DNA from: Microcoleus sp.
GTDB taxonomy: Bacteria; Cyanobacteriota; Cyanobacteriia; Cyanobacteriales; Microcoleaceae
Length of the DNA stretch: 64,000 nucleotides
Assembly: GCA_042408215.1 (NCBI GenBank)
Contig: JAYFMW010000026.1
Location: 162,020-226,019 of the forward strand
Direction: 5' to 3'
In this document: positions 31,417 to 50,355 of the stretch, one piece after another
Position numbering within the stretch: the first letter of the stretch is position 1
Layout: each line of letters starts with the position of its first letter
Translations under genes and position numbers: made by a program
The notes under the pieces: generated by a model
Told to the model about the DNA's origin: nothing
Database searches by the model: none
Seen by the model: the letters and a program-made list of their open reading frames with translations, nothing else

Positions 31417-32514
31417 ATGGCTGAATCTTATTTGCTGGATAAATTGAAGTCGGTTGAGCAAACTTTTCATGAGTTGACTCGCCGCATGGCTGACCCGGAT
31501 GTGGCTAGGGATAATTATGAGTTTCAGCGGGTAGCGAAAGCTCGATCGTCCTTGGAGGAAGTGGTCGATACTTTTGAGCTGTGGAAAATAACTCAGGACG
31601 ACTTGGTAGGTGCGCGGCAGGTTCTCAAGGAAGCAGCGAGCGATCGAGAAATGCAGCAAATGGCTGCGCTGGAAGTTGAGGAACTTGAGTCGAAATCGGA
31701 ACATTTCGAGAGTCGTTTGAAGGTTTTGTTACTGCCTCGCGACCCGAATGATGATAAGAATATTATGCTGGAAATTCGGGCGGGTACTGGTGGAGATGAG
31801 GCTAGTATTTGGGCGGGAGATTTGTTGCGGCTGTATTCGCGCTACGCTCAAACTCAAGGCTGGGTGGTGAAGTTGGTGAGTGAGTCCCTGGCGGATATGG
31901 GCGGGTTTAAGGAAGTAATTCTGGAAGTCACGGGCGATAGCGTTTATAGCAAGCTGAAGTTTGAGGCTGGGGTACACCGGGTGCAGCGGGTGCCGTTGAC
32001 TGAGGCTAGCGGCCGGGTGCATACTTCGACGGCGACGGTGGCTGTGATGCCGGAGGTTGATGAGGTGGAGATTCACATCGATCCGAAGGATATTGAGATG
32101 AGTACGGCTCGATCGGGCGGTGCTGGCGGTCAAAATGTGAACAAGGTGGAAACTGCTGCGGATTTGTTTCACAAGCCGACGGGGATTCGGATTTTCTGTA
32201 CTGAGGAGCGCAGTCAGTTGCAGAATAAGGAGCGGGCGATGCAGATTTTGCGGGCTAAGCTCTACGATCTGAAGTTGCGGGAGCAGCAGGATGAGGTGAA
32301 GTCGCGCCGTTTGGCTCAGGTTGGTACTGGTTCGCGATCGGAAAAAATTCGCACCTACAACTATAAGGATAATCGGGCTACCGACCACCGTTTAGGGGAA
32401 AATTTCTCGCTCAATACTGTTTTGGAAGGGGATATTGAGGGGATTATTCAGACTTGCATTTCTCAGGATCAGCAGGAACGTTTGGCCCAGTTGGCTGCTT
32501 CTACTTCTAATTGA
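31417..32514 (+). CDS. prfA: Peptide chain release factor 1
   Basis: [10 protein letters not shown], PxT motif (PLT), [19 protein letters not shown]. Confidence 0.98.
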
Positions 32515-32530
32515 TGGGTTGATGGGGAAC

Positions 32531-32947
32531 TTAGGCGCATTGTTGACTGAGCCTTTGTTCTCGGATGACTTGACGGATGTGGTTGAGGAGGGCTTCCCAA
32601 ATTGCATCGGCGATCGCAACGGGATACTTGAAATGTTCGAGGTCATACTGTACGATGATTTCTAGAGGTGCGAGAGTTTGCTGGTTTCGACAACTGGCAA
32701 TTGTGGCGATCGTCTCTTGCTGCCATCTGGCAAACAGTCTATAGCTGAAAAAGGAACTGCATTTTTGTCCTTTCTGGTTCAGATAGACGACTATTACTTG
32801 ATGTTGTTTGGGGTAGACTTTGACTATGCGGTTTACGGGCATTCTCAGGGCTTCGGCTGCTTCTATTTTGGAGATTTGCCAGCGCTGGGGTTTGAGCCAA
32901 CCGGAGGCTGTAAGGCTTTGACGGGTGTTGCGTGTCTTGCGAGTCAT
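32531..32947 (-). CDS. Hypothetical protein, copy 1
   Basis: 138-aa ORF; near-identical homolog at 42374-42811. Confidence 0.75.
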   Translation of the reverse strand: MTRKTRNTRQSLTASGWLKPQRWQISKIEAAEALRMPVNRIVKVYPKQHQVIVVYLNQKGQKCSSFFSYRLFARWQQETIATIASCRNQQTLAPLEIIVQYDLEHFKYPVAIADAIWEALLNHIRQVIREQRLSQQCA

Positions 32948-33083
32948 TTTTACTGCCCCTGATTTGCTACAAATACAATTACGATTTCAAAACTATTTAC
33001 ACTCTAACTGGTAAACTTTTTGCTGTCAAGCAAGAAAGACAAATTTTTTGGTAGATAAGTAAACTAGGAGTTGTGTTGATCTG

Positions 33084-33440
33084 GTGACTAATACTGTGGA
33101 CGCAGAAGCTAGGAAGAAACTGAGCGAAGTTGTGAAGCTAGCCCGTGGCGACCTGAGTTTTAGCGCTTTTGGTAGGCTATTGGGAGTCTCTGGGTCTGCC
33201 GTTCAGTATTGGGAAAAGGGGCAGGTACTCCCGGATACGAAAAATTTGACTCAGATTGCGGCAAAAGCGGGCTTTACAATGGAAGAGTTGATGGCTCATC
33301 TCGAAGGTAAGCCAATGCCGGAACCTGTTAATACCAACGAGCTACTGAAGAAAATTCAGTGTATGCCGATGAGTGAGTTGGCAGTGATTGGTAGAGCTGT
33401 GATGGATAGGCTCGCGGCGGCGGCTGAGTCGTCTGGGTAA
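33084..33440 (+). CDS. XRE-family HTH regulator (type A, copy 1)
   Basis: S..AFG..LGVS..AV..WEKG...P. Confidence 0.85.
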   Translation: MTNTVDAEARKKLSEVVKLARGDLSFSAFGRLLGVSGSAVQYWEKGQVLPDTKNLTQIAAKAGFTMEELMAHLEGKPMPEPVNTNELLKKIQCMPMSELAVIGRAVMDRLAAAAESSG

Positions 33441-33501
33441 GTAGAGTTGATGTATCTGTTCGTAAGTAGACTGGTAGGTACGATCGCATAGCTTTTAAGT
33501 T

Positions 33502-33849
33502 GTGAACATCCAAAATAGACAAAAACTCAGTGAAATCATCAAAACTGCTCGTGGAACAATGAGTCAACGAGCGTTTGGTAAGCTTTTAGGCGTTTCTGCG
33601 ACTGCTGTTCAGCTTTGGGAAAGGGGCGATACGGTTCCCGATACCGAAAACTTGGGTAAGCTCGCAGCGAGAGCCGGCTATACTCTGGAAGAGTTTCTCA
33701 GCTTTTTGGATGGCAATCCAGTCTCGCAACCACCAGAAATTAACGATATTGTCAAAAAAATTCAGTTTTTGCCTCTGAGTCAGGTGGCGCTAATTGCTAG
33801 AGCTGTAGCCGATAGATTCGCTGCGTCGGCTGAGGCTGCTGGAGAATGA
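33502..33849 (+). CDS. XRE-family HTH regulator (type B, copy 1)
   Basis: MSQRAFGKLLGVSATAVQLWERG. Confidence 0.85.
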   Translation: MNIQNRQKLSEIIKTARGTMSQRAFGKLLGVSATAVQLWERGDTVPDTENLGKLAARAGYTLEEFLSFLDGNPVSQPPEINDIVKKIQFLPLSQVALIARAVADRFAASAEAAGE

Positions 33850-33893
33850 ATATGAGGCAAATTTATCTGTAAACTAGGACTTGTGTTGATCTG

Positions 33894-34250
33894 GTGACTA
33901 ATACTGTGGACTCAGAAGCTAAGAAAAAACTGAGCGAAGTTGTGAAGCTAGCCCGTGGCGACCTGAGTTTTAGCGCTTTTGGTAGGCTATTGGGAGTCTC
34001 TGGGTCTGCTGTTCAGTATTGGGAAAAGGGTCAGGTACTCCCGGATACGAAAAATTTGACTCAGATTGCGGCAAAAGCGGGCTTTACAATGGAAGAGTTG
34101 ATGGCTCATCTCGAAGGCAAACCAATGCCGGAACCTGTCAATACCAATGAGCTGCTGAAGAAAATTCAATGTATGCCGATTAGTGAGTTGGCAGTTATTG
34201 GTAGAGCCGTGATGGATAGGCTCGCTGCTGCTGCTGAGTCGTCTGGGTAA
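33894..34250 (+). CDS. XRE-family HTH regulator (type A, duplicate)
   Basis: Three aa differences from 33084-33440; upstream 25 bp also duplicated. Confidence 0.85.
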   Translation: MTNTVDSEAKKKLSEVVKLARGDLSFSAFGRLLGVSGSAVQYWEKGQVLPDTKNLTQIAAKAGFTMEELMAHLEGKPMPEPVNTNELLKKIQCMPISELAVIGRAVMDRLAAAAESSG

Positions 34251-34261
34251 GGACAGTAGAT

Positions 34262-34318
34262 TGCGAGTTTTTTGAGTGCCTCTCTTGGTCATTGTTATTT
34301 CTCCCAAATCTGACTTCA
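34262..34318 (-). pseudogene. 5' relic of the 138/145-aa hypothetical gene
   Basis: TTTTTTGAGT..CTCTTGGTCATTG.TATTTCTCC.AAATC resembles 42786-42830. Confidence 0.6.
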
Positions 34319-34359
34319 ATAATGGGATTGAGTAATTTATTTATCGAGAATGTCATAAT

Positions 34360-35199
34360 ATGAATCCCGCATCTCCACCGTTTCAATATCAAGCAGTAGC
34401 TCAATTCACAGGACACATTGACTATTTCCCAGACGGAGGTGAAAACCCTGGGGATGTGGTTGAACTTTTAAAATGTCAAGATGAAGGGGGTGACGAGTAC
34501 AGAATTTATGGAAAATTATCCTTTGATAATTTTGTAGATGGACGCGCAAAGATTGAGGCTTTAATTATAGAAAAAGACTATCCTATACAGCAAAAATTAG
34601 AGGATTTTTGGGAATACGCCCAAGAAAAAATAAAATCTTATGCTTATAGATTAGTAGCTTTTTCAGGTGATTGGTCAGCTACAGTAGCCGATGTATTTGT
34701 AAAAAATAAAAATGGCTATGAATATCAATATCATCCATCTGATGCTCCTCAAATCAAAGATGAAATTTCTCAGTATTTAGTATTGAAGACGATTGATAAA
34801 TTGAAATTCCGTAATTTGATTACTGCTCCCCAATCAGAATTTTTAGATGAATACATAGAAAGATATTATTTTATAGAAAATAACTTAATTAAAGGGTCAA
34901 AAATAGATCCTGTACTCCTTTTAATCAGCTTATCAAATTTGTTTGAACTTATTCAGGAGAATGAAGCTCCTCCACCAATGACTGAAGATCCATTGCTTAC
35001 AGCTACGAGAAATTTAGTTGTTCATGGACTTGTTTATCGTAATAACACTGTAACTCCTCTACAGACAAGATTTGCTACTAGGGAAAATGTTTTTAAGTTT
35101 AGCCGCAATAATCTAGAACATATGAAACTGGTTAGAGAAGCTAATTTGAAACTACTTAAGATTATAACTCACTACATTGAAGATACTGTTTTGAGATAG
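34360..35199 (+). CDS. Hypothetical protein with C-terminal RxxxxH (HEPN-like) motif
   Basis: 279-aa AT-rich ORF; TRNLVVHG in a helical C-terminus. Confidence 0.6.
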   Translation: MNPASPPFQYQAVAQFTGHIDYFPDGGENPGDVVELLKCQDEGGDEYRIYGKLSFDNFVDGRAKIEALIIEKDYPIQQKLEDFWEYAQEKIKSYAYRLVAFSGDWSATVADVFVKNKNGYEYQYHPSDAPQIKDEISQYLVLKTIDKLKFRNLITAPQSEFLDEYIERYYFIENNLIKGSKIDPVLLLISLSNLFELIQENEAPPPMTEDPLLTATRNLVVHGLVYRNNTVTPLQTRFATRENVFKFSRNNLEHMKLVREANLKLLKIITHYIEDTVLR

Positions 35200-35250
35200 C
35201 GTGACAGAGCTTAAGAAATAGGTTAAGTATAATTATCATAAACCAAAACC

Positions 35251-35958
35251 TTATATTCTCCTAAATCTCTGGATTTCTTGTAGTTCAGATAAAATTGACA
35301 ACCAAGAAACATTAATAACTATATCTTTAATTTGTTGGATTATTTCATTGGGTTGGATTTGAGTTACATAATTATCCCAATTGTCAGTAATGGTAATACA
35401 AAATTTATCTAGGCTGTAATGAACCAACTGCTCTAGCAAAATGCGACTAGATGATAAAGATAGATAGTCTATCGCTTCGCAAGCAATAAGTATTTGTAGT
35501 AATAAATTTTGATCGTAAGTTTTTGACGACAATATTCGGCATTCCGTTTCCAATTGACTACTGTTATCGGAAAAATGATTGCAACAGGCTTCAGTAAAGT
35601 TATTCAATTTCTGGGTGTTAATTTTTTCTTTAAATACGTGAATTTTTTGATAAAAATTATCATCACTCCTTGCTATAATATTCAGAAAGTATTTTTGAAA
35701 TAAATCACGCCTTTGCTTTTTGTCTTCTGGGGTTAAGCCACTCGATTCTTCGCTGTAGCCTGTTACTCTAAGGGAACATCTACTAGAAGAAGTAGCTTGA
35801 AAATGAGCAAAATGAGTTTTTTTATAGTCCCCCCTTTTTAGATGAACTTCTTCACCACATTCCAGACAGCGTAGACCTAAATTTGAGTAACTGGAGTAAT
35901 CCGCATCATCTGCACAAACAATCATTCCTCCCTGATACATAGACTTGGCACAATACAT
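35251..35958 (-). CDS. Hypothetical protein with CoiA-like N-terminal zinc ribbon
   Basis: L.C..CGE.V.L..G.....HF.H...C pattern; start set at MYCAKS. Confidence 0.6.
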   Translation of the reverse strand: MYCAKSMYQGGMIVCADDADYSSYSNLGLRCLECGEEVHLKRGDYKKTHFAHFQATSSSRCSLRVTGYSEESSGLTPEDKKQRRDLFQKYFLNIIARSDDNFYQKIHVFKEKINTQKLNNFTEACCNHFSDNSSQLETECRILSSKTYDQNLLLQILIACEAIDYLSLSSSRILLEQLVHYSLDKFCITITDNWDNYVTQIQPNEIIQQIKDIVINVSWLSILSELQEIQRFRRI

Positions 35959-35999
35959 AACTTTTTCCTTAATAAATTGAATGTAGTTATAAATTAGCG

Positions 36000-36322
36000 A
36001 CTGGATAGCCTTCCGCATCAACCTTGTGGCAAACCCATGCGGATACAATTTTACTCCTTCAACTTGCAGGTAAACCTGCAAAAACCCCAGTTCCAAAAGT
36101 TTCGCAGCTAAACCCAGAATAGCTGACCTTAGCTCGCATCTGCTAGAGGGTCGAGCCATCAACGAAACCGAGATACCCCGCTTAAATGCCTCCTCTACCT
36201 GTTCTCCCCAATCCGGGTCATTTACCCCCAAAATTGGCGTTGATCCAACTGTAGCACATCCAGCAAAACCTCTCTCTTCGCATGGGGAAGCACCGGAAAC
36301 GGATTGTAGGAAGACAAAGCAC

Positions 36323-36329
<7 letters not shown>
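36000..36329 (-). pseudogene. Degenerate C-terminal fragment resembling a DpdJ-type helicase
   Basis: RS.ALSSYNPF..LP...RE.LLD.L then DPDW.EQV..A..AIL.LA...E.GFL.VY..VEGV..AIQ across a frameshift; recognised from memory only. Confidence 0.4.
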
Positions 36330-36952
<623 letters not shown>

Positions 36953-36968
36953 TGGGTTGATGGGGAAC

Positions 36969-37053
36969 TTAGGCGCATTTTTGGGTGTGCCTTTGTTCTC
37001 TGATGACTTGACGGATGTGGTTGAGGAGGGCTTCCCAAATTGCATCGGCGATC
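36969..37053 (-). pseudogene. 3' fragment of the 138-aa hypothetical gene
   Basis: Matches 32531 onward and stops at GCGATC (37048-37053). Confidence 0.85.
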
Positions 37054-37091
37054 ACTCTTTGGGAATTGGGGCGAGCGATCGTGCCTAAATT

Positions 37092-38282
37092 TTACCGAAT
37101 TGGAACAAACCCTGCTTCTTCTACTAACTTTTGACCTTCATCGCTCAAGAGCATATTGGTATAAGCAACTCCCGCTTGTTCATCCAATTTTCCATCCTGT
37201 TTGATGACAACAAAAAGTCGTCGCGTCAACGGGTAAGTTCCATCAGTAAAAGCAGTTTTATTAACCGCTTTGCAAATTTGATCGATACAGGGAGACACAA
37301 AACCTGAACTCGCTACCTTGCCAAGAGGAAGAAGGTTTATCATACTTTGATTGATTACCTCTGAAGCTGTAGCATACCCAATACCACCACGAGTCACAGC
37401 AACCTTTCTTATTGATTCAGTAGTGTCTCTCACCTCTTGCACATTCGATCCAAATGGTTGTTTATCTAACACTTTTTCAGAAAAGTAATCAACTGTACCA
37501 CCAGCACTAAGATTACGGCTAAAGGGAGTAATTTCCTGGTCTGGCCCTCCTACATCTTTCCAGTTTTTGACTCTTCCAGTAAAGATATCCTGCCCTTGAG
37601 CTAAGCTAATCCCTTTTAAACCTTGATTAATCAATTCAGGATTGACATAAAAAGCAATACCATCAATAGCAACAGCTACTTGTTCAAGTTTAAAATTTCG
37701 CTTTTTAGCCAGTTCAAACTCATCGTCTTTTACAGATCGCGAAGATTCAGCAAAACTCATTTGTCCCTCAATCAGCATTTTAATACCTGTTCCAGATCCA
37801 GGCTTGCCATTAGGCGGCTCAGTATAGCGCAACTGAAATTGAGGATGTGTCTTATTAATAGCTGCAACAATGACCGGAGAGCGCAGAGGTGCAAAGGTTG
37901 TAGAACCCCCATAGTTGAATATTCCATTTGGGACATTAGGAACATTAGCCAGACTAGGATAGGTAGTGAACGGGGCGCTACTCGGTGTAACAGGCGTTGT
38001 GGGGTTAGGGATGGGGCTGATGGGTGAAGCTGTAGGAGTAGGTGATGTGGGGTTAGGGATGGGGCTGATGGGTGAAGCTGTAGAAGTAGATGATGGCGCT
38101 CCAAATAGCTTGTCTTTAAATAAAAAATAGGGTCCCCCTAACATTAAAAATACAGTTGCTAATCCCAAAACTATAGGAGGTACACCGCGTAATCTTGTAC
38201 CGCAGTAGGAACACTGATATGCTGTGGATGAATTTAATGTTTTACACTTCGGGCATTCGACATTATTAGAGCCACTACTCAT
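37092..38282 (-). CDS. Zinc-ribbon + TM + Pro-rich linker + PstS-like (PBP) domain protein
   Basis: CPKC..CSYC, hydrophobic span, YGGSTT, GSGTGI, VAIDGIA, YPLTRRLFV. Confidence 0.85.
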   Translation of the reverse strand: MSSGSNNVECPKCKTLNSSTAYQCSYCGTRLRGVPPIVLGLATVFLMLGGPYFLFKDKLFGAPSSTSTASPISPIPNPTSPTPTASPISPIPNPTTPVTPSSAPFTTYPSLANVPNVPNGIFNYGGSTTFAPLRSPVIVAAINKTHPQFQLRYTEPPNGKPGSGTGIKMLIEGQMSFAESSRSVKDDEFELAKKRNFKLEQVAVAIDGIAFYVNPELINQGLKGISLAQGQDIFTGRVKNWKDVGGPDQEITPFSRNLSAGGTVDYFSEKVLDKQPFGSNVQEVRDTTESIRKVAVTRGGIGYATASEVINQSMINLLPLGKVASSGFVSPCIDQICKAVNKTAFTDGTYPLTRRLFVVIKQDGKLDEQAGVAYTNMLLSDEGQKLVEEAGFVPIR

Positions 38283-38305
38283 AAATACCTCATAAAAATT
38301 GATAA

Positions 38306-41300
38306 CTATTTATTCAAGCCTAGTTCTTTTCGCACGTTCGACTCAATTGCTGTTACTTGTTCGTTAGTCAATCCCAATTCCTCTTGAAGATCAAGTAAAT
38401 CAGCCTGCTGTTGCCCGCCTATTCCTTCATCATTCTCAAGAAAAGCTCGATACATCAGAGCATATTCCTGTTGATAATTTTGAGGTGCGAACTCAGCAAT
38501 AATCCGCTCTGCCAGTTCTTGAGGAATGGCATATCTTTGGCGAAAGCGCTCCAAAGTTTGCAAGTCTGTGGCAGAAGGATTGCCGCGACTGTAACAACTC
38601 TGGGCTAACTTTTTGAATTTTTCCAGATTCCCTTCAAAATCTGCTGTAGTTGCAGGTTTTACTGGTGAAGGGATGGAAGGCTCAGTAGGTGTCTGGGAAG
38701 CTGAAGATGTAGCATCACTAATGAATAAATTGTGATTCTTGACAAACTCCTCAATTGCGGCTTTAGCCTTTCCGTGTTCAGGATTATCTTTGCCATGCAA
38801 GAGAGTATTTTCTAACTGCTCCAGGTATGTCATCAGTTTTTGATAGAGAGCTTTTTTCTCTGGTTTCGTAACCGCTTTTTCACCGATACTTTGAATAGTG
38901 TCATTAAGGATTTCTCTAACTTGCCGGTTAGAATCGTTCAGCAAGTATTCTTCAGCCTCCTGCCAATTTGCTCCGAAAGTATGAGTTTTTCCAAACCCCG
39001 TCTGCTTATCTTGGTAGGCAAAACGCACTTCGTGGAACCCAGTAGCTTTGTTCTCCACTTCCGTCAGCAACTCCAAAACTCTTCCCAGAATCAGGTTGTG
39101 TTTAACTTTTACCTCATGGTCAGGTGCAGGCATCGGGTCTTGAAAACGACGATTATCTTGATGAGTGTGCAGCGGGTTCGGATCTGATTGCGAAACCGAG
39201 CGATAAACAGTCCGCATCCGATCCATCCCCTCAATTAGCCTTAATGGAAAAGCTCCAACTTCTTGAACAAAATAAATTGAGTGCGGGTCGTTGAGAGGTT
39301 TGATATCTTTATCGGTTAACGTGCTAGCTTTACGGAGCATGGGCAAAATAATTTCTACCGCTGAATCTGTAGGCTTATTTCCTCCCTCAATTCCTACCAG
39401 TTTTTGGCGTTTTTCAGGTCGGTCATCCCAACCTAGACGGGCTTGATCTTGACTAAACCGTACAAACGGTTCACTTTTCTCAAAGGTAGTTTTAATTCTG
39501 GCTTCCTGCTCTTGTAGAGTAGGATACTGTTGTAGGAATTGGCGTGCTGCCGAAATTTTGATTTGAAGCCTACCTGCCAATTCATCTAAAGCTAGATCGT
39601 AAAGCCTATTCAACAAGTCTTTCCTTCGTGGAACATCTTCTGAGAAAGTGTGCATGCCAAGCAATCTCAACTTCAATTCCCCTAAAACTTTCTGGGAAAT
39701 AGTCTGAATAGCATTTTCTTCTTTACCTTCTAGGGCTTCGCTATAAACTTGATCGACTACCTTGGGGTCATAAAGTAAAATGCCATTAACGGTTAGCGTT
39801 CCTGTTTCCCGTATGTAAGTATTTTCATATTCTTGTAATATCAACTGTACATATTCTATTGTTCGCTCATAGGCTGTGATATCGAGCAATAACTGATCTA
39901 TTTCTGCAATCATAGAGTCTACAAGTCGAACCCCTAAAACGCGAGACTTGACTTCTATCTTAGCCACATATAGGTCTTTGAGTGTCGCCAAAATATCTTC
40001 AAAATCTTTGTCAACAACACTTTTTTTATTGATGGGGTTAAACTCTTTAGCATGGGTGTCGATTTGATTGGACAATACTGGAAACTTTTTGTCAGCTTTT
40101 GTTTCTTGGTCTAGCCACACTTTTGACCTTTCTTGCTCAAATCGACTGCGGTATTCAGCAAAGACTTCTCGGAGCGTCTCTAAAAATTGACGGGTAAACC
40201 TTGAACCACGAAATCTGTCTTCAACCATGCGGTAGACCGTTTCGCGAAGCTCTTGGCGTTTTTGGGGAATTAATCGACTGAGGTTATCCCACATTTTTTT
40301 ATAGTAGTCGCTCCACCGCTTCGGATCGTCATCGCTACCCTCAAAATGGGGATCGTACTTCCGTTTGTTTTCCGCTATAAAGTTTTGTAAAACTTCAAAT
40401 TTAACGTTTAATTGGTTGCGTTCCTGTTTCACCGCAGCCACCCACTCAGAAACTTCCAGGCTATAGGTTTTACTATTGTCGCTCAAACTGATGCTGTCAA
40501 GGATTTGGTGCTCCTTGTCAGATTCAGTTAGCTGGAGGCTTGGCAATATTTCGGTTTTAACTACATCTCGCATTGATGTAGAAACGGGAGTAGGATTTGC
40601 CCACCATGAAACTACACGGTTAGCGAGGCGAAAAGCACAAGCTTTGCGAACCCGTTCTACGGGAAACTGAATGCTAGAAAGACCGAAAGTAATAAAATTT
40701 TGAGGATAACCAAGGGGATCGGGCGCTGCCCACTGCTTACGAATATTGTCTCTCACTAACTTTTTATAGGGACTAAATCCAGAACTGAAGTCTAGGAAAA
40801 TATTTTGTGCGACCATTTCTAGCATTGATTCCAGGGTGGGAAGGGTGACTTTATCGTTGCTATTGCCTAGCAGGTAGCAGAAGCTAAAAGGCACATCTTG
40901 ACCAATCTGACTGCTAATTTGATCGGAAGCATTTGTGCTGTATTGCGCTTCAAAGCGAGTATCGCTGCGGGAATAGTGGTTTAATTCCATTAGAGCAGCA
41001 TAAGCATTGGCAACTACCCTGTCTCCCAAACCAGAAAAAGCCCCTGGCAACACCAAGTAGGCTGATGTTTGAGGCTGATCCGACGCGGGAATCCAATCGC
41101 GGAGATTGTAGGCGAGGTCTAAAAACATTCCTGAACCTGTTCCGCCACAAAGGGAACAAACAACAAAGATATTGATGCCTTTATCAATTTGCACCTGGCG
41201 GCGCTCCATTTTGTCCGTTCCTTCAATAATCCTCTGTTTAGCATTCTCAAAACTATCTTTAATTGACGGATAATTGATGGTAAAGGCAAATTTACCTAAA

Positions 41301-41653
41301 GATCTAATTTGACCTGCACCTGCCAAAATTGAATCAGTACCTTTGAGCTGACTCGGAAACCAATCTGCTAAATAGTTGTAGTCAGAAAGTTTGTTAAGCA
41401 TGGCTTTAGCATTTTCTACCTTAGCCCAGACTTGTTCGACAGGACGCAGGGAAATATCTTGTTTGAGAACGACTTGCGATTCTGAGCATTTGGCGTTCTG
41501 CTCTGTATCTATATGCAAGAACGATACTATCGGCAGAGCATCTAAGGATCCGTAGGTTTCCACGATCATCCGGCGAATTTTAATTAATATTTCTTTTCCT
41601 GTCCCACCTAGTCCGATGACGACAGTGGGAGTCATGCCTTGGTACTCAGCCAT
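38306..41653 (-). CDS. Tubulin/FtsZ-like (Tubulin_2 type) large protein
   Basis: VIGLGGTG, GAGQIR, SLCGGTGSG, ANAYAAL.EL; long helical body. Confidence 0.88.
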   Translation of the reverse strand: MAEYQGMTPTVVIGLGGTGKEILIKIRRMIVETYGSLDALPIVSFLHIDTEQNAKCSESQVVLKQDISLRPVEQVWAKVENAKAMLNKLSDYNYLADWFPSQLKGTDSILAGAGQIRSLGKFAFTINYPSIKDSFENAKQRIIEGTDKMERRQVQIDKGINIFVVCSLCGGTGSGMFLDLAYNLRDWIPASDQPQTSAYLVLPGAFSGLGDRVVANAYAALMELNHYSRSDTRFEAQYSTNASDQISSQIGQDVPFSFCYLLGNSNDKVTLPTLESMLEMVAQNIFLDFSSGFSPYKKLVRDNIRKQWAAPDPLGYPQNFITFGLSSIQFPVERVRKACAFRLANRVVSWWANPTPVSTSMRDVVKTEILPSLQLTESDKEHQILDSISLSDNSKTYSLEVSEWVAAVKQERNQLNVKFEVLQNFIAENKRKYDPHFEGSDDDPKRWSDYYKKMWDNLSRLIPQKRQELRETVYRMVEDRFRGSRFTRQFLETLREVFAEYRSRFEQERSKVWLDQETKADKKFPVLSNQIDTHAKEFNPINKKSVVDKDFEDILATLKDLYVAKIEVKSRVLGVRLVDSMIAEIDQLLLDITAYERTIEYVQLILQEYENTYIRETGTLTVNGILLYDPKVVDQVYSEALEGKEENAIQTISQKVLGELKLRLLGMHTFSEDVPRRKDLLNRLYDLALDELAGRLQIKISAARQFLQQYPTLQEQEARIKTTFEKSEPFVRFSQDQARLGWDDRPEKRQKLVGIEGGNKPTDSAVEIILPMLRKASTLTDKDIKPLNDPHSIYFVQEVGAFPLRLIEGMDRMRTVYRSVSQSDPNPLHTHQDNRRFQDPMPAPDHEVKVKHNLILGRVLELLTEVENKATGFHEVRFAYQDKQTGFGKTHTFGANWQEAEEYLLNDSNRQVREILNDTIQSIGEKAVTKPEKKALYQKLMTYLEQLENTLLHGKDNPEHGKAKAAIEEFVKNHNLFISDATSSASQTPTEPSIPSPVKPATTADFEGNLEKFKKLAQSCYSRGNPSATDLQTLERFRQRYAIPQELAERIIAEFAPQNYQQEYALMYRAFLENDEGIGGQQQADLLDLQEELGLTNEQVTAIESNVRKELGLNK

Positions 41654-41728
41654 ACTTTAATTTAAGGATAGATATTGCTAATATTATGAATGGTAGTATA
41701 GCATACGGTTGAGGTGAGAGTTGTATTT

Positions 41729-42358
<630 letters not shown>

Positions 42359-42373
42359 TGGGTTGATGGGGAA

Positions 42374-42811
42374 CTAGGCGCAAGCTAGGCTGAGCCTTTG
42401 TTCTGTGATGACTTGGCGGATGTGGTTGAGGAGGGCTTCCCAAATTGCATCGGCGATCGCCACTGGATACTTGAAATGTTCGAGGTCGTACTGTACAATG
42501 ATTTCTAGAGGTGCTAAGGTTTGCTGGTTTCTACAACTGGCAATTGTGGCGATCGCCTCTTGTTCCCATCTGGCAAATAGTCTGTAGCTGAAAAAGGAAC
42601 TGCATTTTTGTCCTTTCTTGTTCAGGTAAACGACTATTACTTGATGTTGTTTGGGGTAAACTTTGACTATCCGGTTTACGGGCATTCTCAGGGCTTCGGC
42701 TGCTTCTATTTTGGAGATTTGCCAGCACTGGGGTTTTAGCCAACCGGAGGCTGTAAGGCTTTGACGGGTGTGGCTGGGCTTGTGATTTTTTTGAGTCCGT
42801 CTCTTGGTCAT
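42374..42811 (-). CDS. Hypothetical protein, copy 2
   Basis: Homolog of 32531-32947; AGGAG precedes ATG 42811. Confidence 0.75.
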   Translation of the reverse strand: MTKRRTQKNHKPSHTRQSLTASGWLKPQCWQISKIEAAEALRMPVNRIVKVYPKQHQVIVVYLNKKGQKCSSFFSYRLFARWEQEAIATIASCRNQQTLAPLEIIVQYDLEHFKYPVAIADAIWEALLNHIRQVITEQRLSLACA

Positions 42812-42949
42812 TGCTATTTCTCCTAAATCCGTTTTCATTAAAATTCAAAATTTCAATCTAATTAAAAGAATATCTGTTAAATCTTCTCCTGTCAAGCAAG
42901 ACAGGTAAATTTGTTGGTACACAAGTAAACTAGGAATTGTGGTTATCTG

Positions 42950-43315
42950 GTGGCTGATACCGTGGACGCAGAAGCTAAGAAAAAACTGAGTGAGGTTGTT
43001 AAATTAGCGCGGGGCTCGATGAGTCTGACTGCTTTTGGCAAGCTGTTGGGAGTTTCTGCTGCTTCTGTCTTGTATTGGGAAAAGGGGCAGGTACTTCCAG
43101 ATACGAAAAATTTGACTCAGATTGCGACAAGAGCAGGCTTTACGATGGAAGAGCTCATGGCTCATCTTGAAGGCAAGCCGGTGCAGGAACCCGTAGATAC
43201 TAACGATCTGCTTAAGAAAATTCAATGTATACCAATTAGTGAGTTAGCCGTGGTTGGTAGAGCTGTGATGGATAGACTCGCGGCGGCGGCTGAGTCGTCT
43301 GGGAAATATAGTTGA
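42950..43315 (+). CDS. XRE-family HTH regulator (type A, divergent allele)
   Basis: Homolog of 33084-33440 with an altered recognition helix (VSAASVLYWE). Confidence 0.85.
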   Translation: MADTVDAEAKKKLSEVVKLARGSMSLTAFGKLLGVSAASVLYWEKGQVLPDTKNLTQIATRAGFTMEELMAHLEGKPVQEPVDTNDLLKKIQCIPISELAVVGRAVMDRLAAAAESSGKYS

Positions 43316-43366
43316 TGTATCTGTTTGTAAGTAGACTCGTAGATACGATCGCATAGCTTTTAAGTC

Positions 43367-43714
43367 GTGAACATCCAAAATAGACAAAAACTTAGCGAAA
43401 TTATCAAAACTGCTCGTGGAACAATGAGTCAACGAGCGTTTGGTAAGCTTTTAGGCGTTTCTGCAACTGCGGTTCAGCTTTGGGAAAGGGGCGATACGGT
43501 TCCAGAGACGGAAAACTTGGCTAAAATTGCTGCAAGAGCTGGTTATTCGTTGGAAGAGTTTCTCAGCATTTTGGATGGCAATTCAGTCTCGCAAGCCCCA
43601 GAAATTAACGATATTGTCAAAAAAATTCAGTTTTTGCCTCTGAGTCAGGTGGCGCTAATTGGCAAAGCTGTAGCGGATAGGTTCGCTGCGTCGGCTGAGG
43701 CTGCTGGAGAATGA
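43367..43714 (+). CDS. XRE-family HTH regulator (type B, copy 2)
   Basis: Homolog of 33502-33849. Confidence 0.85.
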   Translation: MNIQNRQKLSEIIKTARGTMSQRAFGKLLGVSATAVQLWERGDTVPETENLAKIAARAGYSLEEFLSILDGNSVSQAPEINDIVKKIQFLPLSQVALIGKAVADRFAASAEAAGE

Positions 43715-43871
43715 GTTAGAATCGATCGCGATCGCCCGTTTTGCAAAGTAGAGTTCGATCGCCCTTAAGAAATTCCTCCCACTCGTGCATATCACAAATT
43801 GAGTATTTTGTCAAGTTAAAATCTACTTGGTTACGGAGTCCGATAGCCCTTATGGACTGACGCACTCCGAC

Positions 43872-43940
43872 AAAGAAACCGGGTTTTTCACCTAATCTGT
43901 CGGTGACAACGAAGTATTTTCCTAAAAAACCCGGTTTCTG
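43872..43940. repeat. AGAAACCGGGTTT inverted-repeat element
   Basis: Related pairs at 52367-52432 and about 57180-57211. Confidence 0.75.
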
Positions 43941-43978
43941 GGCCCCCTATCATCGCCCTTATGAAAAAACCACTCGCC

Positions 43979-44785
43979 CTATCCCTGACTCAATATGTCT
44001 AAAAATTCTTGGACAATGCGATCGGGTTCTTCTGTGCATCTGTTAGCGTCGCAATAGTGGATGATGCTGATACCGTGAGATGCAAACAGGCGATCGCGCG
44101 TTTCATCTTTTTCTGTGTCGGGATGGCATATTTCCAGAATACCCCATTTGCCTTGGTGGAATATCAGAAAATCTGGTTCTTGGTTTTGTCGCCCTGCGGG
44201 TGTGGTGAGGCGGGCTTTGGAGTTGGGGAAAAAGAGGGTGTTTGTGCGATCGAGCGCTTCGGCTATTTTTACTTGTTCTTGGCTGTGAAAGCGCAAATCG
44301 TTCCAGTGATAAATCCGTTCTTTTATGCTTGACAAAAGTCCCTGGTTATGGGCGTTTTCAGGCTTAATCATTCCATCTGATACTGTATTATAATCAGATA
44401 TAGTTGCACCCTGTAAATCTGTTGATGAATCAGACTCACTTAAGTTGGCGAATGATATTCTGGCTCCGCTTAAGTTAGCACCGCTGAGATTAACTCCAAT
44501 AACTTGAGTTCGATGTAAAGTCACTTGATGTCGCCGCAAGTATCGTTTAAAAACAGAGCGTAAATTATTTTTTTTTACTTTTTCATCAAAAGCCTGTGAG
44601 AGTTGTTTCCAGAGTTTAGCCGCCAGCGCTTTTATGTATTCATCATTATATTGAGAGAGTTGAGAAATTTCTTCATAGGAATGTCTTCCTTCCCAGCATT
44701 GTCTGAAGATGAGCTCTTGTACGTCGTTTAAGCCTTCGCCATCGAGGACTGTTTCTGCGATCGCGATTGCTTCATCAACGGTCAT
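43979..44785 (-). CDS. N-terminal HTH + pentapeptide repeats + PD-(D/E)xK-like domain protein
   Basis: L...Q..I...W...SY.EI....LW..LS....V.K.N; NLSGANLSGA; EPDFLI...WGILEI. Confidence 0.7.
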   Translation of the reverse strand: MTVDEAIAIAETVLDGEGLNDVQELIFRQCWEGRHSYEEISQLSQYNDEYIKALAAKLWKQLSQAFDEKVKKNNLRSVFKRYLRRHQVTLHRTQVIGVNLSGANLSGARISFANLSESDSSTDLQGATISDYNTVSDGMIKPENAHNQGLLSSIKERIYHWNDLRFHSQEQVKIAEALDRTNTLFFPNSKARLTTPAGRQNQEPDFLIFHQGKWGILEICHPDTEKDETRDRLFASHGISIIHYCDANRCTEEPDRIVQEFLDILSQG

Positions 44786-44831
44786 GGCTTAAGTTTCCTT
44801 AAAGTATATATCTGGTGAAGTTTTGACAATA

Positions 44832-45210
44832 ATACCATTTTTTTATGATGCTGCATAGAATCCGATCCCCCCTAAAGAGGGCGGGCGGGCACGGGGGCAC
44901 CGCCCCTACAATGGGGGGACAAGATTCTTCTCAAAGTCCCCCTTCTTAAGGGGGATTTAGGGGGATCGAGATATGTGCAACGACCCATTAAATTAATATA
45001 ATACCAATTTTTTATGAGGCCCCGTAGAATCCGATCCCCCCTAGCCCCCCTTAAGAAGGGGGGGACAAGACTCTTCTCAAAGCCCTAAAGAGGGCGGCAA
45101 CGGGGGCACCGCCCCTACAATGGGGGGGACAAGACTCTTCTCAAAGTCCCCCTTCTTAAGGGGGATTTAGGGGGATCGAGATATGTGCAACGACCCATTA
45201 AATTAATATA
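44832..45210. repeat. Two tandem copies of a GATCCCCC...GGGGGATC palindromic element
   Basis: Units start at about 44832 and 45001; both carry a nested GCCCCTACA arm. Confidence 0.85.
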
Positions 45211-45229
45211 AGAGGCGATGTTTGAGCAA

Positions 45230-46090
45230 TTAAGGCTGATGTTCGTTCAACCAATTGGTTAAATCTGAGGCTTCTGAAAAATCCAAAAGCGCTTCTCCTA
45301 AATCCTCTAATTCTTCTACGGATAAAGTCTGAATTTGCTCGGTTGTTTCAGGGGCGATCGAACCGATGCGTCGAATCAACAGGCGAGTGAGCAACGACAG
45401 CGCCTCATCTTTCCTTCCTTCAAGGAGGCCTAGTTGTCTTCCTTCAAGGAGTCCATCTTCGCGAATTTCTTGGTAAATCACAGAACCGCGCATAGTTTCT
45501 TTCCTAAATAGTTGTCTGATCAAGTCTTTTTCAAATCTCAAACCTGCGAGCACTTGGGTACAAGCGAGTAAATCCGCTTGTTGATTCGGTTCTTCTATTG
45601 TAGCAATCTGAGTAGCAATTTGCTCTAACAAATTTCGCGGCGAGTTGGTTTGGGATAGTGTCGCGAATGGGAGTAAGCCGGGGACGGACAGCAGTAACGC
45701 GGGGTCTTGTTCCCACAGGCGGATAACTCGATAGCTGTGTCGGGTGTTCGCGTCTGTGTACTCGGATACAAAAACTTGTTCTGAGGCTGTTTGCTGCAAA
45801 AAGATTACTACTTGATTGATGGAACAGGAGTATTGCCGTTTGAGCCTGACGTAGTAGTCTAGCATTCTGAAGGCGATCGGCGGGTCGGAGTAGGGTCGGG
45901 TTTCAAATTCCAGATGCAGGATTTGGTTATCTGTTTGCAGGAAAACGAGAGAATCGGCTCGGATGGGCTCTTGAATTAGTTCGGTTTTGAGTACCTGAAC
46001 GCTGGTGGGTTCGTCAATTGGTAGCAGCCAGCTTACGAAGGCGGCAGGGAATTTTTCGGCTAGATATTTGCAGGTGTTGTCGTAGGCCAA
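45230..46090 (-). CDS. Rpn family recombination-promoting nuclease/putative transposase (DUF4351 C-terminus)
   Basis: TEL..EPIRAD, ILHLEF, RMLDY, LE.LGEALLDF....L..WL. Confidence 0.88.
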   Translation of the reverse strand: MAYDNTCKYLAEKFPAAFVSWLLPIDEPTSVQVLKTELIQEPIRADSLVFLQTDNQILHLEFETRPYSDPPIAFRMLDYYVRLKRQYSCSINQVVIFLQQTASEQVFVSEYTDANTRHSYRVIRLWEQDPALLLSVPGLLPFATLSQTNSPRNLLEQIATQIATIEEPNQQADLLACTQVLAGLRFEKDLIRQLFRKETMRGSVIYQEIREDGLLEGRQLGLLEGRKDEALSLLTRLLIRRIGSIAPETTEQIQTLSVEELEDLGEALLDFSEASDLTNWLNEHQP

Positions 46091-46292
46091 GGAAGTTGGG
46101 TTGTGAGAGGGGACTAGAAGAGTTTAACCCTAGGGGCATCTATCTGAGAGGAGATTTTAGGGCGATTTGGGGAAAGTCATTACTTTTTATCACTTTTTAT
46201 CACTTTTTATCACTGACAAAGATGAGATCGAGTTGATAAAGTATTTTACTAATAGCTCGCGAGCAGTGCTCCACAGGTAGCAATACAGAATA

Positions 46293-47120
46293 ATGAATAA
46301 GCGATTAAAACTGATATTTCTAACATCTACCATTATATGTACAGTGCTGTTTCCTTCGGCAAGCTGGGCGCGGACTGTCTTGCAAGAAATCCAGCAAACA
46401 GGAGTTTTAAAAGTAGGGATTAGAAAAGATGCTGTGTTTTTTGGCTATGAAAGTTCAGGAAGTTGGACAGGCTATTGTGCAGGCTTTGCCAATGCTCTAG
46501 CAAGTAGTCTCAGCAAACAAATGAATACTTCTATTAGTGTCAGAGCAGTTACATCTACGCTCCCAACCCGCGAGGGAATAGTTCGAGATGGCACTGTACA
46601 TATTGAGTGTGGACCAAATACAATTAGTCGCGAAAAAGAAGTACAGGAAAACATTAAATATTCACAGGCTTTTTTTGTCACGGGGACGCAATTTATTGTA
46701 AGGGCTGCCAACAAAAATACCAGCTTGAAAAATGCGAGACTCGGTGTACTTCGAGGATCAACCAATATACGTTCAGTTACCCAAGCATATTCAGAAGCTG
46801 AAATACAGCAGTTTTCTGAAAGAAGTGAGGGTGTAAGTGCTGCAATGAACGGTCAAGTTACTGCATTTGCTGGAGATAGTATTCTTTTGATAGGAGAAGC
46901 CGTGAGACAGGGAGTGCCGCTCAGTGCTTTTGAGATAGTACCCAACCAACCTCTATCCTGTGACTTTTATGGAATGATACTTCCTACTAACGATACTCAG
47001 TGGCAAAATACAGTGAACTCTTTTATTGGTAGCAGTCAAGGGCTACAGGTTTGGGGGACTTGGTTTGGAGGATTAGCACCTTATCTTAAAGGAACGCTTG
47101 ACTATTGCAAGAGCAGATAA
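46293..47120 (+). CDS. Amino-acid ABC-type substrate-binding protein (family 3)
   Basis: Signal peptide, G.L.VG.R.D, ECG..TI..E, F.TGTQF. Confidence 0.85.
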   Translation: MNKRLKLIFLTSTIICTVLFPSASWARTVLQEIQQTGVLKVGIRKDAVFFGYESSGSWTGYCAGFANALASSLSKQMNTSISVRAVTSTLPTREGIVRDGTVHIECGPNTISREKEVQENIKYSQAFFVTGTQFIVRAANKNTSLKNARLGVLRGSTNIRSVTQAYSEAEIQQFSERSEGVSAAMNGQVTAFAGDSILLIGEAVRQGVPLSAFEIVPNQPLSCDFYGMILPTNDTQWQNTVNSFIGSSQGLQVWGTWFGGLAPYLKGTLDYCKSR

Positions 47121-47171
47121 ATCAAAGCGTTCGGTGTTTCTAGCTCCAAATGTCTTATTAAGGGGGAAGTT

Positions 47172-48047
47172 ATGAGCGAACAAGGAATAGTCAAAACAAT
47201 AGTAGTTGGAGTAATAGTAGCTGTTGTAGGATCGTCAATCCATATTTTTCAGAATGAAATTAAACAATGTATTGGTTTGCAAGTAGGTTTTTGCCCTCTG
47301 ACAAATGAGGTAACATACAAGGATGGTGGTAGATATAAGGGTGATACTTTTAATGGTAATCCACATGGTAAAGGAGTATTTATTACTGCTAATGGCGATC
47401 GCTACGAAGGAGAGTTCAAGAATGGAACATATGAAGGTAAAGGCACATATACTTACGCCGCAAATGAGGCTGGCTATAAACGCCATCTAGGGGAGTGGCA
47501 GAATGGCAAAAGAAATGGTAAAGGGACGTTGAATTATACGAGTGGTGATCGTTTAGAAGGAGAGTGGAAAAATGATAGTTACATCAAGGGTGTATATATC
47601 TATAAAAATGGCGATCGATATGAGGGAGAGTGGAGCAATGATGGAACAAAACGCAATGGAAAAGGGACTTTAACCTATGCAGATGGTCAGCGTTATGTAG
47701 GTGAGTTTCGTGACAACGAAATCAATGGTACAGGGAGTATGACCTACCCTAAAGACAGCAAGACACAAAGCTATGACGGTGAGTGGAAAAACGGAAAATT
47801 CAACGGCAAAGGCAAAATTATTTGGTCTGATGGCAGTAGCTATGACGGGTACTGGCGTGATAACAAATATAACGGTCAAGGGGTTTTTACTTGGGCTGAT
47901 GGCGATCGCTTTGAAGGGGAGTGGCTTGATGACAAGCGCAATGGTTTTGGGGTAATGATATACACTAACGGCACTGGTAAATTCCAAGTCTGGGAGAATG
48001 GTAAATTAGCTACATCACCATCACCAAGTCCTTCGCCAAGTCCTTGA
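47172..48047 (+). CDS. MORN-repeat protein with N-terminal anchor
   Basis: Repeated Y.GEW.NG...GKG..TY..GD units. Confidence 0.92.
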   Translation: MSEQGIVKTIVVGVIVAVVGSSIHIFQNEIKQCIGLQVGFCPLTNEVTYKDGGRYKGDTFNGNPHGKGVFITANGDRYEGEFKNGTYEGKGTYTYAANEAGYKRHLGEWQNGKRNGKGTLNYTSGDRLEGEWKNDSYIKGVYIYKNGDRYEGEWSNDGTKRNGKGTLTYADGQRYVGEFRDNEINGTGSMTYPKDSKTQSYDGEWKNGKFNGKGKIIWSDGSSYDGYWRDNKYNGQGVFTWADGDRFEGEWLDDKRNGFGVMIYTNGTGKFQVWENGKLATSPSPSPSPSP

Positions 48048-48176
48048 TAGGGAAGAATCTGTGCTTGAGTTACGATCGCACCTCATCACCCTCACCTTTC
48101 TACAATCTTCTCCCATCGCCTGCTTTAAAGGTTCTTGAAGTTCGATCGCCCTCCAATGCAAATCCCTTGCAATCGA

Positions 48177-48545
48177 TCATACTTTCAAAGATTCTCGCTG
48201 CTGTTCCCTAGAAGGCACTCCATAAGCAGTATAAGGTCGAACATCAGGCGGTTGAAGCCCCAAAACAATTGATTTAGCCGGAATTCCTGCTGCAACTAAC
48301 TCCTCAGCAATCAGGCGATCGGTATTATTTGCTTGAATCCACACCTGAGAGTCAATAATATCAATATGAATCACGCAATGGTGAATGCGCTGCTCGTTAA
48401 ACCAACCTATATTTATTAACATATAGCGGTCATTTTCCACATCAAAAATTGTGGCGTTTTGCGTGCCGCTGTCAAAAACGGGAATCTCAGCGTATTCAGT
48501 CAGGAGCTGCTTAACAAGTTTGCGATAATTATTTAAGCTATCCAT
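48177..48545 (-). CDS. xisI: XisI family protein (copy 1)
   Basis: D.ENDRY.L...GW, HIDI.D..VWIQ.N.T...IA.EL...GIP...IVLG..PP..R. Confidence 0.9.
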   Translation of the reverse strand: MDSLNNYRKLVKQLLTEYAEIPVFDSGTQNATIFDVENDRYMLINIGWFNEQRIHHCVIHIDIIDSQVWIQANNTDRLIAEELVAAGIPAKSIVLGLQPPDVRPYTAYGVPSREQQRESLKV

Positions 48546-48948
48546 TGTACTATTTCCTCTGTTTTTGGGTTGAAAACAACAAGACTTAGGCGGTTATTAT
48601 CTAGCAAAATTTGACCAAATTTTTGTCCTTCAAAAAGCTCCGTAAAAGCATTTAGTGGAAGTGCAAGATAAAGTTGTCTTTCTGATTCTGTCTGTTTTAA
48701 GATGTCATAGTAAAGAGTGTATTGACCCAACGCTTGCTCTAAATCTGCAACTCGCGACTCTCTGATAAAACTTTTAACTTCAACGGCTATCTTGCGATCG
48801 TTGTTCTCAGCAGCTAATAGCTGTTCGGCACCAAGATCGATAGGTTTCTCTTCGCCCAAGCCAATGGATAGGGATCGTGGGTAATTGTCCAGCCAGCCTT
48901 AATCAGAGCCTGTTTGACAACTTGATGATAAATGTCTCTTGCGGGCAC
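48533..48948 (-). pseudogene. xisH: XisH family protein, frameshifted
   Basis: 4-bp deletion at GATCGATCGA relative to the intact copy at 50712-51128. Confidence 0.85.
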
Positions 48949-49129
48949 GATCGCTCTCTTTTTCTATCCAGATCGAGACTATTATAATGTATTTCATCCC
49001 GATCGCCCAAATCATCCCCAATGCGATCTCTCACGCTTGGGAAGTGGGAAGTCTGCAACCATTAGAAGAAGTAGAAAGTGCGATCGCCCTTTTTTGCTCC
49101 ACCACACAAATATAATTTTACAGTAGCAT

Positions 49130-49352
49130 TTAACAAGCAATTTGAAGCGTCCTGGGTTCAGGGATAGATTCACCTTCTGCTTCCCAAGCTTCCAAATACA
49201 TTTCAATCACTTCTTCGCCGTTATGAATTGCTTGCTCGCGAGTTTGACCGTGAGTGCAAGGCATCACCACGCGATCGGCAAACTCTGGAATCGTGACTAG
49301 GAAAAGTCGATCTTCATGACTACCATTGAACAATCATACTATATCGACTCAT
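49130..49352 (-). pseudogene. HicB-family antitoxin, frameshifted after MSRYSMIVQW
   Basis: EDRLFLVTIPEF...THG.T.E.A..N..E.I..Y.E..E.IPEP; one extra base near 49320. Confidence 0.75.
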
Positions 49353-49368
49353 AAATCCTCGCCCCTTT

Positions 49369-49803
49369 TTAACACCATAGAAAAAAAGATTTGTCAACAG
49401 TTACATATTTCCCCAAAACTGTCAATGGCATCACATCCGCACTTCCAAGTACATCAACAGACACCCCATCTCTAATCAGAATTTTAAACACTTCATCCCC
49501 ATTTTGAACTAAGCTTGCATCTAACTCAATAACTTGACCCTCTTCCTTCAAGACACTTAATAAATCCGCACTAGATAAACGCAATACTTCCTCATTATTA
49601 CCTTTCTTAGTCAATTGATCGCCACATCTTCCAGTAGCATCAATATCAGCAACGATCCATTGATTAGGCAACTCACAATTTTGGGCTAAATATTCAATAA
49701 TTTGGGCAACTCTGGGTTCCAGTTTTTCCTGTTCCTCATAGCAGAGTGTAATTGCCCACTTTTGGCTAACATTTTGTTTGAGAGCAGAAGTTTGAGATTT
49801 CAT
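49369..49803 (-). CDS. Hypothetical protein, candidate immunity protein
   Basis: 144-aa ORF whose ATG overlaps the stop of the upstream toxin-like frame. Confidence 0.6.
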   Translation of the reverse strand: MKSQTSALKQNVSQKWAITLCYEEQEKLEPRVAQIIEYLAQNCELPNQWIVADIDATGRCGDQLTKKGNNEEVLRLSSADLLSVLKEEGQVIELDASLVQNGDEVFKILIRDGVSVDVLGSADVMPLTVLGKYVTVDKSFFLWC

Positions 49804-50121: not shown

Positions 50122-50237
50122 TCTAGTTTCAGGTTTTTGGGAAATTCAACCTAATTATTTTATCACTTATTTTAAAAGGCGGTAGAACAAGTGCGATCAA
50201 TTGCACAACAGCAGCCTGTGGACTGATACGAGCCGAT

Positions 50238-50318
50238 GCGATCGCAAAACTCTGGAATAGTAACTAAGAAAAGTCCATCTTTATCAGACCATTGAACAAT
50301 CATACTATATCGACTCAT
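50238..50318 (-). pseudogene. 5' fragment of a second hicB
   Basis: MSRYSMIVQWSDKDGLFLVTIPEFCDR; homology is lost at GCGATCGC. Confidence 0.8.
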
Positions 50319-50355
50319 AAACCATCGCCCTCCAAGTCAAATCCCTTCCACTCCA

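Follow-up and report, generated by a model that had tools for sequence, protein, structure and literature searches.

A stack of three island alleles behind prfA in Microcoleus, probably built by homologous recombination through one illegitimate xisI|prfA junction

The stretch analysed here (the window) is the final 64 kb of contig JAYFMW010000026.1 (C26) in the 7.36-Mb, 30-contig assembly GCA_042408215.1 of a Microcoleus species, and contains, at the release factor gene prfA, a tandem array of three segments that each run from prfA-derived sequence to xisI and hold unrelated cargo. The preferred reading, to which a probability of roughly 60% is given, is that one homology-facilitated illegitimate join of xisI to prfA created a natural bridging fragment, through which a replacement slot became an additive stack of alleles by homologous recombination. 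The array repeats were mapped by self-BLAST of the window, the open reading frames (ORFs) of the units were searched against Pfam, NCBIfam and PHROGs, and the locus was compared with 79 genomes of the genus (one genome per species) and with 72 prfA loci fetched from genus and order relatives, 23 of which span the whole slot.

The prfA-derived 3' pieces begin at 32126 (the GGQ codons), 36565 and 41971, and the xisI 3' ends of the three segments lie at 36564, 41970 and 48314, which upheld the three prfA-to-xisI units described in an initial annotation of the window. The array is composed of these three segments and two junctions (J1, 36564..36565, + strand; J2, 41970/41971), and segment 3 reads on into an intact xisI. 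Homology was found between 32126-33849 and 41970-43714 (88.0% identity), 32126-32615 and 36564-37053 (94.5%), 36323-37053 and 41729-42458 (98.6%), and 36323-36564 and 48072-48314 (90.9%). An 81-bp flank (F; 36323..36403, + strand), bounded by the HIP1-like sequences ACGATCGC and GCGATCGC, recurs at 41729 and 48072, and the cargoes directly to the left of its three copies are unrelated to one another, as had been noticed from the sequence. The claim of a frame common to all three units did not hold: unit 2 is cargo enclosed by two short arms, a 490-bp prfA arm (including the last 85 bp of the gene for a DUF protein) and the F-xisI arm, and lacks the HTH genes, and within the array the pentapeptide and Rpn genes are confined to unit 3.

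Both joins pass from xisI ...ATCAG to prfA CGGCCAAAAT, and J1 and J2 are identical across 532 bp (36323 to 36854), so the two junctions described earlier as identical are indeed one and the same join. At J1, the xisI 3' part (36396..36564, - strand) comprises the last 138 nt of the ORF and downstream sequence, and the prfA 3' arm (36565..37053, + strand) ends at a HIP1-like GGCGATC (about 37044-37053); J2 is carried by the corresponding F, xisI 3' arm and prfA 3' arm at 41729..42458 (+ strand). The parental sites have at most 1 bp of exact microhomology (G) beside a GGCG-like resemblance, without a further common core, and the join sits 1-2 bp before the CGATCG (HIP1) of xisI. In the junction prfA arms GGQ reads SGQ, and the arm differs from the resident prfA at 22 of 388 positions. 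The resident copy (31417..32514, + strand; PCRF and RF-1 domains), which forms the left anchor, is intact, in line with the earlier statement that prfA was left unbroken. A fused or rescue-type release factor encoded by the arms was ruled out by the SGQ motif and by a stop about 20 codons upstream in the window; a GTG-started 125-aa fragment of the arm is possible, and would be devoid of the catalytic motif. A variant of the junction retaining both G's had no match among genome contigs.

The units flanking these identical junctions are unlike in their frames. The first HTH gene (HTHa) of unit 1 is 99.7% identical to that of G014, which belongs to another species (its remaining long genes match at about 80-93%), and only about 83% identical to HTHa of unit 3, which in turn is 97% identical to G022. 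Across the DUF-HTH block of unit 1, 0-2 differences per 150 bp from G014 were counted over 32766-33666, and the unit-3 genes are nearest to other species (94-97%). Since units 1 and 3 are 88% alike yet J1 and J2 do not differ over 532 bp, the divergence of the two units would predate the duplication, and plain duplication followed by point divergence was ruled out. The proposal that shared genes differ at allele level was therefore borne out for unit 1 versus unit 3, and failed for the junction arms, which are copies of each other; that the array holds island alleles of different strains was supported, units 1 and 3 coming from different lineages and each being closer to another species.

Across the genus, the usual order is prfA-DUF-HTH(2-5)-pentapeptide-Rpn-cargo-F-xisI-xisH-ABC-F, in single copy. 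The 23 slot-spanning loci yielded 19 different strings of ORF clusters, a number that spurious ORFs and insertion sequences may inflate, with cargoes including SBP-MORN, SBP-receptor, GUN4, kinase-GUN4, UvrD, vWA, Septu and toxin-antitoxin genes. The comparison of relatives that the initial annotation had proposed thus returned single units with varied cargo to the left of the same flank, and in most of 34 matches F broke off sharply on the left, at the HIP1-like sequence where it begins. The unit-1 cargo closes with 140 bp from the 3' end of a Septu ptuB gene (36183..36322, + strand); in G069 and G004 the same piece stands ahead of F with xisI intact, so that unit 1 represents a genuine slot allele. 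Alternative cargo lies between conserved genes at a syntenic position, and the nearest relative changes segment by segment, as with homologous recombination in the flanks. Comparison of these sequences shows the interval from prfA to xisI behaving as a recombinase-free replacement hotspot of the genus.

The junction itself was present in two of the 79 genomes, as well as in a genome record (L074) that was not added to this tally, and the DNA encoding the binding protein (PBP) and tubulin of unit 2 was confined to the same two genomes (three candidates scored per genome). A metagenome contig (L033) matched 37074-42240 including the junction, at 94.2% identity and in the order tubulin-F-xisI|prfA. 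Outside the window the junction invariably stood behind tubulin DNA; within the window J1, a recent copy, is the exception. Because all carriers outside that recent copy have the same join and the same upstream cargo, the junction appears to have arisen once, as one illegitimate join and not as a repeatedly used att site, which agrees with the earlier proposal that one junction formed once. On either side, the unit-2 cargo borders native DNA at a HIP1-like site, and the unit-1 and unit-2 cargoes have a foreign look, with GC contents of 35.5% and 42.3% and CGATCG densities of 0 and 0.21 per kb, against 2.46 per kb genome-wide. A phage or plasmid vehicle was ruled out, as the junction occurred in 0 viral contigs and plasmid-borne tubulin relatives were at most 30% identical; a close donor was not found among 201 genomes of the order, where the best partial matches reached 51-56%.

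Traces of the same arrangement were found in G014. At its prfA locus, unit 1 runs to the third HTH gene and is followed by a 125-bp PBP piece that is 100% identical to that of the window; this locus is a deletion derivative of a unit 1-unit 2 stack. A relic this similar in a species whose other long genes are about 80-93% identical argues that junction-bearing DNA moved between lineages. At an unrelated locus (G014:C39), a decayed unit 2 has prfA sequence at both ends, and has the form expected of an opened circle and, equally, of an array fragment. The junction arms have also gone on recombining with resident alleles: among the four junction copies, the xisI arms are mosaics and were rejected as a clade (approximately unbiased test, AU p 0.0025, 169 columns), and the junction prfA arm differs from the resident prfA of G014 at 3 positions in 269 bp.

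A second fixed joint (J'), present in 15 of the 79 genomes, one of them a single-contig genome, follows different cargo and starts the frame anew from the stop codon of prfA. The left part retained ranges from about 90 bp to 1.5 kb, and in G003 two DUF-HTH frames, 90% alike, lie on either side of the cargo. Examples (prfA-forward coordinates) are L009:4815, L052:3968 and L043:3887, and the usual cargo before the joint consists of a 560-675-aa protein (in one case with a C-terminal HicA domain) and a 162-aa protein of no assigned function. As J' uses a different point from J, frame-restart joints have arisen at least twice at this locus and have spread across species.

HIP1 sites make a modest contribution to joining. 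Alignment ends fell near CGATCG in 30 of 149 cases against 10.1 expected, with repeats counted several times. When each repeat was counted once, 11 of 71 homology edges were at HIP1 against 5.3 expected (p = 0.018), and elsewhere the count was 7 of 111 against 5.3, without excess, which ruled out HIP1 as an obligatory att site. In Synechococcus PCC 7002, homologous, methylated HIP1 sites are described as increasing integration (10.1101/2024.09.10.611283, in the part available).

Under the preferred reading, foreign PBP-tubulin DNA trapped between native ends would have been joined illegitimately once, the xisI end to the GGQ codons of prfA, with a second chromosome copy or a donor as partner and prfA homology as the probable anchor. 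A homologous anchor, prfA, and a 1-bp join are what the sequences retain of such an event, which is itself inferred. The resulting junction would keep two arms, F-xisI (243 bp) and prfA (490 bp), each homologous to every allele of the locus, so a crossover in either arm could place the island version of another strain in tandem, prfA staying whole since the arm would restore its 3' end, and crossovers between like arms could loop units out. The window array would have required at least two stacking events, which brought together a unit 1 resembling that of G014, unit 2 with its PBP-tubulin cargo and a unit 3 of the canonical type. J1 would be a recent copy of J2, and a crossover inside unit 2 between 'unit 1-J-unit 2' and 'unit 2-J-unit 3' would yield the exact order observed. 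The likely engine is RecA-type recombination after DNA uptake, presumably by natural transformation (comEC and dprA are present in the genome), with HIP1-like sites favoured as join points, though not required, and with no need for a dedicated enzyme. Repeats of 243-731 bp are present on which RecA recombination could act to change copy number.

Several observations weigh against this reading. The three-unit form was seen in one of the 79 genomes, and among the relatives surveyed there were neither tandem copies of one unit, nor an excised circle, nor an allele of the form prfA-PBP-tubulin-F-intact xisI. The sequence ahead of the PBP gene in L033 is likewise other DNA and not prfA. Few branches are supported in the arm tree, with its 169 columns, and the HIP1 excess shrinks once repeats are counted once. 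The competence for natural transformation that the account presumes is a prediction from comEC and dprA. No listed record spans two junctions, and the contig of run X14 that bridges 36171-36607, from the unit-1 cargo across J1 (437 bp, not one letter different), may come from the source itself or from the same population. Finally, duplication with double-crossover replacement would give the same final sequence.

That alternative, in which the slot was duplicated and then triplicated in one lineage by unequal crossing-over and the content of each copy later replaced by double crossovers between conserved flanks, in the manner of minimal mobile elements, so that the junction never bridged strains, was judged rather unlikely. 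It draws on the free exchange of the slot across the genus, and the identity of J1 and J2 over 532 bp is what a recent intrachromosomal copy would show; but it needs more events, the junction with PBP-tubulin DNA is also found in G014 and L033 with 4-10% diverged cargo, and the unit 1-unit 2 relic of G014, with its 100% identical PBP piece, has to be accommodated. An assembly chimera, with real joints and a three-unit order created from co-occurring strains via the shared arms or unit 2, is improbable. The 2.55% contamination estimated for the assembly, the near-identical 731-bp arms and the absence of a listed contig covering two junctions would fit it. The assembly, on the other hand, passes through a complete rRNA operon in mid-contig and resolves multi-kb near-identical tandem repeats, which suggests that it was made from long reads, and unit 1 followed by PBP was seen independently in G014. 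Single borders were also bridged in other public runs, from the prfA arm to PBP (36950-37479 in X2, 37008-38027 in X3) and from tubulin to F-xisI (38054-41866 in X2, 38054-41888 in X3). Unit 2 and the frame of unit 3 are covered by X2 and X3, with no coverage at 34056-36047 (unit-1 cargo), a pattern that a two-unit strain would fit but that was not used as evidence, missing coverage being no proof; the X3 tubulin-xisI contig rejoins prfA at 42205 on 30 letters, too weak a match for a variant junction. Of the public runs for which a habitat is given, those that match best come from freshwater, river and sediment metagenomes.

A very improbable alternative is that the junction is an attachment site for a recombinase or nuclease acting in trans (a genome recombinase, XisH/XisI or Rpn) that excises and re-inserts prfA-xisI circles. 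The nuclease-type genes of the frame are Rpn and xisH, and XisH, which has a PD-(D/E)XK fold, is listed among fdxN excision factors in the available part of one source (PMC3424549). Repeated joining would also yield non-monophyletic arms. Restoration of the 3' end of the target gene on integration is typical of integrative elements. Rpn proteins have reportedly been linked to RecA-independent transfer and to phage defence (PMC5350276, PMC10327210); the Rpn protein of the window shows no tie to the joints. The parental sites, however, have 1-4 bp in common at most, the junction is tied to a single cargo and occurs in two of 79 genomes though nearly all carry prfA and most have xisI nearby, and J' joins at a different point. 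The five tyrosine recombinase genes (PF00589 matches) and the one large serine recombinase gene (on C6) lie on other contigs, with none on C26, and no recombinase was found among the unit ORFs by Pfam, NCBIfam or PHROGs, searches that did not cover small resolvases and transposases. The earlier statement that no integrase is visible stands to this extent, the nuclease-type genes being present. Rfam gave no match in 30000-57000 and no attC-like repeat was seen, although F was not folded or modelled as attC. The DUF-HTH block as a prophage remnant was rejected, with generic repressor matches only and no family for the DUF protein.

The array is neither an integron nor an integrative element. As in integrons, unrelated cargo stands beside a repeated flank in tandem units, but C26 has no intI, there are only three units of 4-6 kb, and the repeats are arms made of gene fragments. 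The proposal of an integron-like or dedicated system was thus not sustained, given the single three-unit genome, the lack of any tandem of one unit and a described precedent for every step. An integrative element at prfA would be expected to have its own recombinase in the unit and a common att core, neither of which was found in the unit ORFs or at the parental sites. In the fdxN type of xis element, the serine recombinase XisF acts with xisH-xisI inside the excised unit, whereas here there is no tyrosine or large serine recombinase on C26 and the junction cuts xisI.

The closest natural case, going by the available portions of the sources cited in this paragraph, is that of the Vibrio type VI secretion system (T6SS) effector-immunity arrays, for which homology-facilitated illegitimate recombination is the proposed mechanism (Kirchberger et al. 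2017, PMC5361080). There too, alleles of different strains accumulate without an integrase behind a conserved anchor, by an anchor and an illegitimate join; the authors also compare the arrays to integrons and describe finished arrays as spreading by homologous recombination. In Vibrio, however, every addition is a new illegitimate join that displaces part of the resident module, whereas at the prfA locus one joint is reused, the 3' end of the anchor gene becomes duplicated, and island versions of several genes each persist in full. In the EASy method for Acinetobacter baylyi, a synthetic bridging fragment, a short linear DNA with halves matching the ends of a segment, gives tandem duplication (PMC12455638), and in pneumococcus merodiploids are made by transformation (Johnston et al. 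2013, PMC3784515). Both have a diagnostic novel junction, as the present locus does, and work by homologous recombination with variable copy number, as would be expected of it; their junctions are engineered or lie on pre-existing insertion sequence repeats and their copies are identical, whereas the prfA-locus junction is natural, occurs in more than one lineage and separates units that are different alleles. Minimal mobile elements and replacement hotspots (PMC1797815; Oliveira et al. 2017, PMC5635113; for replacement versus additive islands, 10.1101/2020.11.11.378109) likewise have alternative cargo in one syntenic slot with conserved, recombining flanks and no mobility genes. Such slots are described as carrying one version at a time, whereas three were found in the window and two frames in G003, the junction making the slot additive. 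In the literature covered, which included few subscription papers and no supplements, neither this locus nor any natural junction reused for stacking island alleles was found described.

In unit 1, the 'DUF138' frame gene, encoding a cyanobacterial hypothetical protein (32531..32947, - strand; 97.4% to G014), is followed by three HTH_3 genes (a, b, a'; 33084..34250, + strand), with near-identity to G014 over 32766-33666. The HTH_3 cluster opposite the DUF gene counts 1 to 5 tandem genes depending on the species, and some of these genes have an additional N-terminal part fused to them (224 aa, possibly GIY-YIG-like as judged by eye). The unit-1 cargo (34360..35958, both strands, no CGATCG in 2 kb) comprises a 279-aa ORF (34360-35199, + strand; 35% GC) without match in Pfam, NCBIfam, PADLOC or PHROGs, and a CoiA_N-type zinc-finger ORF (probably 35251-35958, - strand) with a weak DruB match; together they are possible defence cargo.

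The unit-2 cargo (37092..41653) encodes the zinc-ribbon/PstS-like binding protein (37092-38282, - strand) and a 1115-aa Tubulin_2 protein (38306-41653, - strand), the latter with a 33% paralog encoded on contig C10; across the order, 40 of 201 genomes have full-length relatives. The unit-3 frame (42374..46090, both strands) has the canonical genus order, with the DUF gene (154 aa, - strand), two HTH_3 genes (+ strand), a pentapeptide protein gene (43979-44785, - strand) and the Rpn-family gene (45230-46090, - strand), and holds two short dispersed repeat families (43850-43950 and 44830-45210) with dozens of copies genome-wide. Its cargo, an SBP_bac_3 binding protein and a MORN-repeat protein (46293..48047, + strand), is the commonest slot content among the fetched loci.

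The right anchor (48072..48993, - strand) consists of F, the intact xisI (48177-48545) and xisH, the open frame of which spans profile positions 37-134 only. A fourth, partial repeat of xisI-xisH, missed in the initial annotation, follows (48145-48993 with 50324-51177, 93%): a 144-aa ORF and a second xisI-xisH pair occupy 49196..51177 (- strand), of which 49196-50783 is 96.9% identical to G014:C122. Over 48145-51177, xisI-xisH is thus doubled round the 144-aa ORF with the first xisH frame broken, a second heteroallelic stack, at the right anchor. The gene at 52559..54259 (+ strand), which from its sequence probably encodes an ABC-F ATPase, lies just outside the hotspot on the right and is conserved there within the genus. 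Two tandem rRNA operons occupy 57250-64000, the first complete (5S at 57323, 23S, two tRNAs, 16S to 62458) and the second, beginning at 63538, truncated by the contig end. Further multi-kb direct repeats of 86-93% identity, 4-17 kb apart (C7:99664-128300, C30:13728-72935, C6:1068813-1079140), could be paralog clusters or further heteroallelic stacks.

In transformable bacteria, mobility genes are absent from most acquisition hotspots, and there is little documentation of how several versions come to coexist at one site. The prfA locus preserves intermediates, namely a slot replaceable across the genus, frame-restart junctions of two independent origins, stacks of differing alleles, a relic left by deletion and a copy at an ectopic site. 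Each step is known; the natural cross-species case at a cargo slot is new. Tentatively, and with more doubt than confidence, J and J' might be heritable, horizontally travelling bridging fragments through which any transformable cell of the Microcoleus type adds the island version of a neighbour, in place of a swap, and drops it again, with methylated HIP1 favouring the splice points of foreign cargo, and that are active in river-mat populations today. The junction is a short, defined DNA of about 730 bp that lends itself to direct tests of junction-driven stacking and of the role of HIP1. If true, the bridging-fragment reading would provide a gene-free, integrase-free path from replacement to additive islands rich in defence and signalling genes, and even as a rare accident the locus would be a clear natural example of an effect known from engineered junctions.

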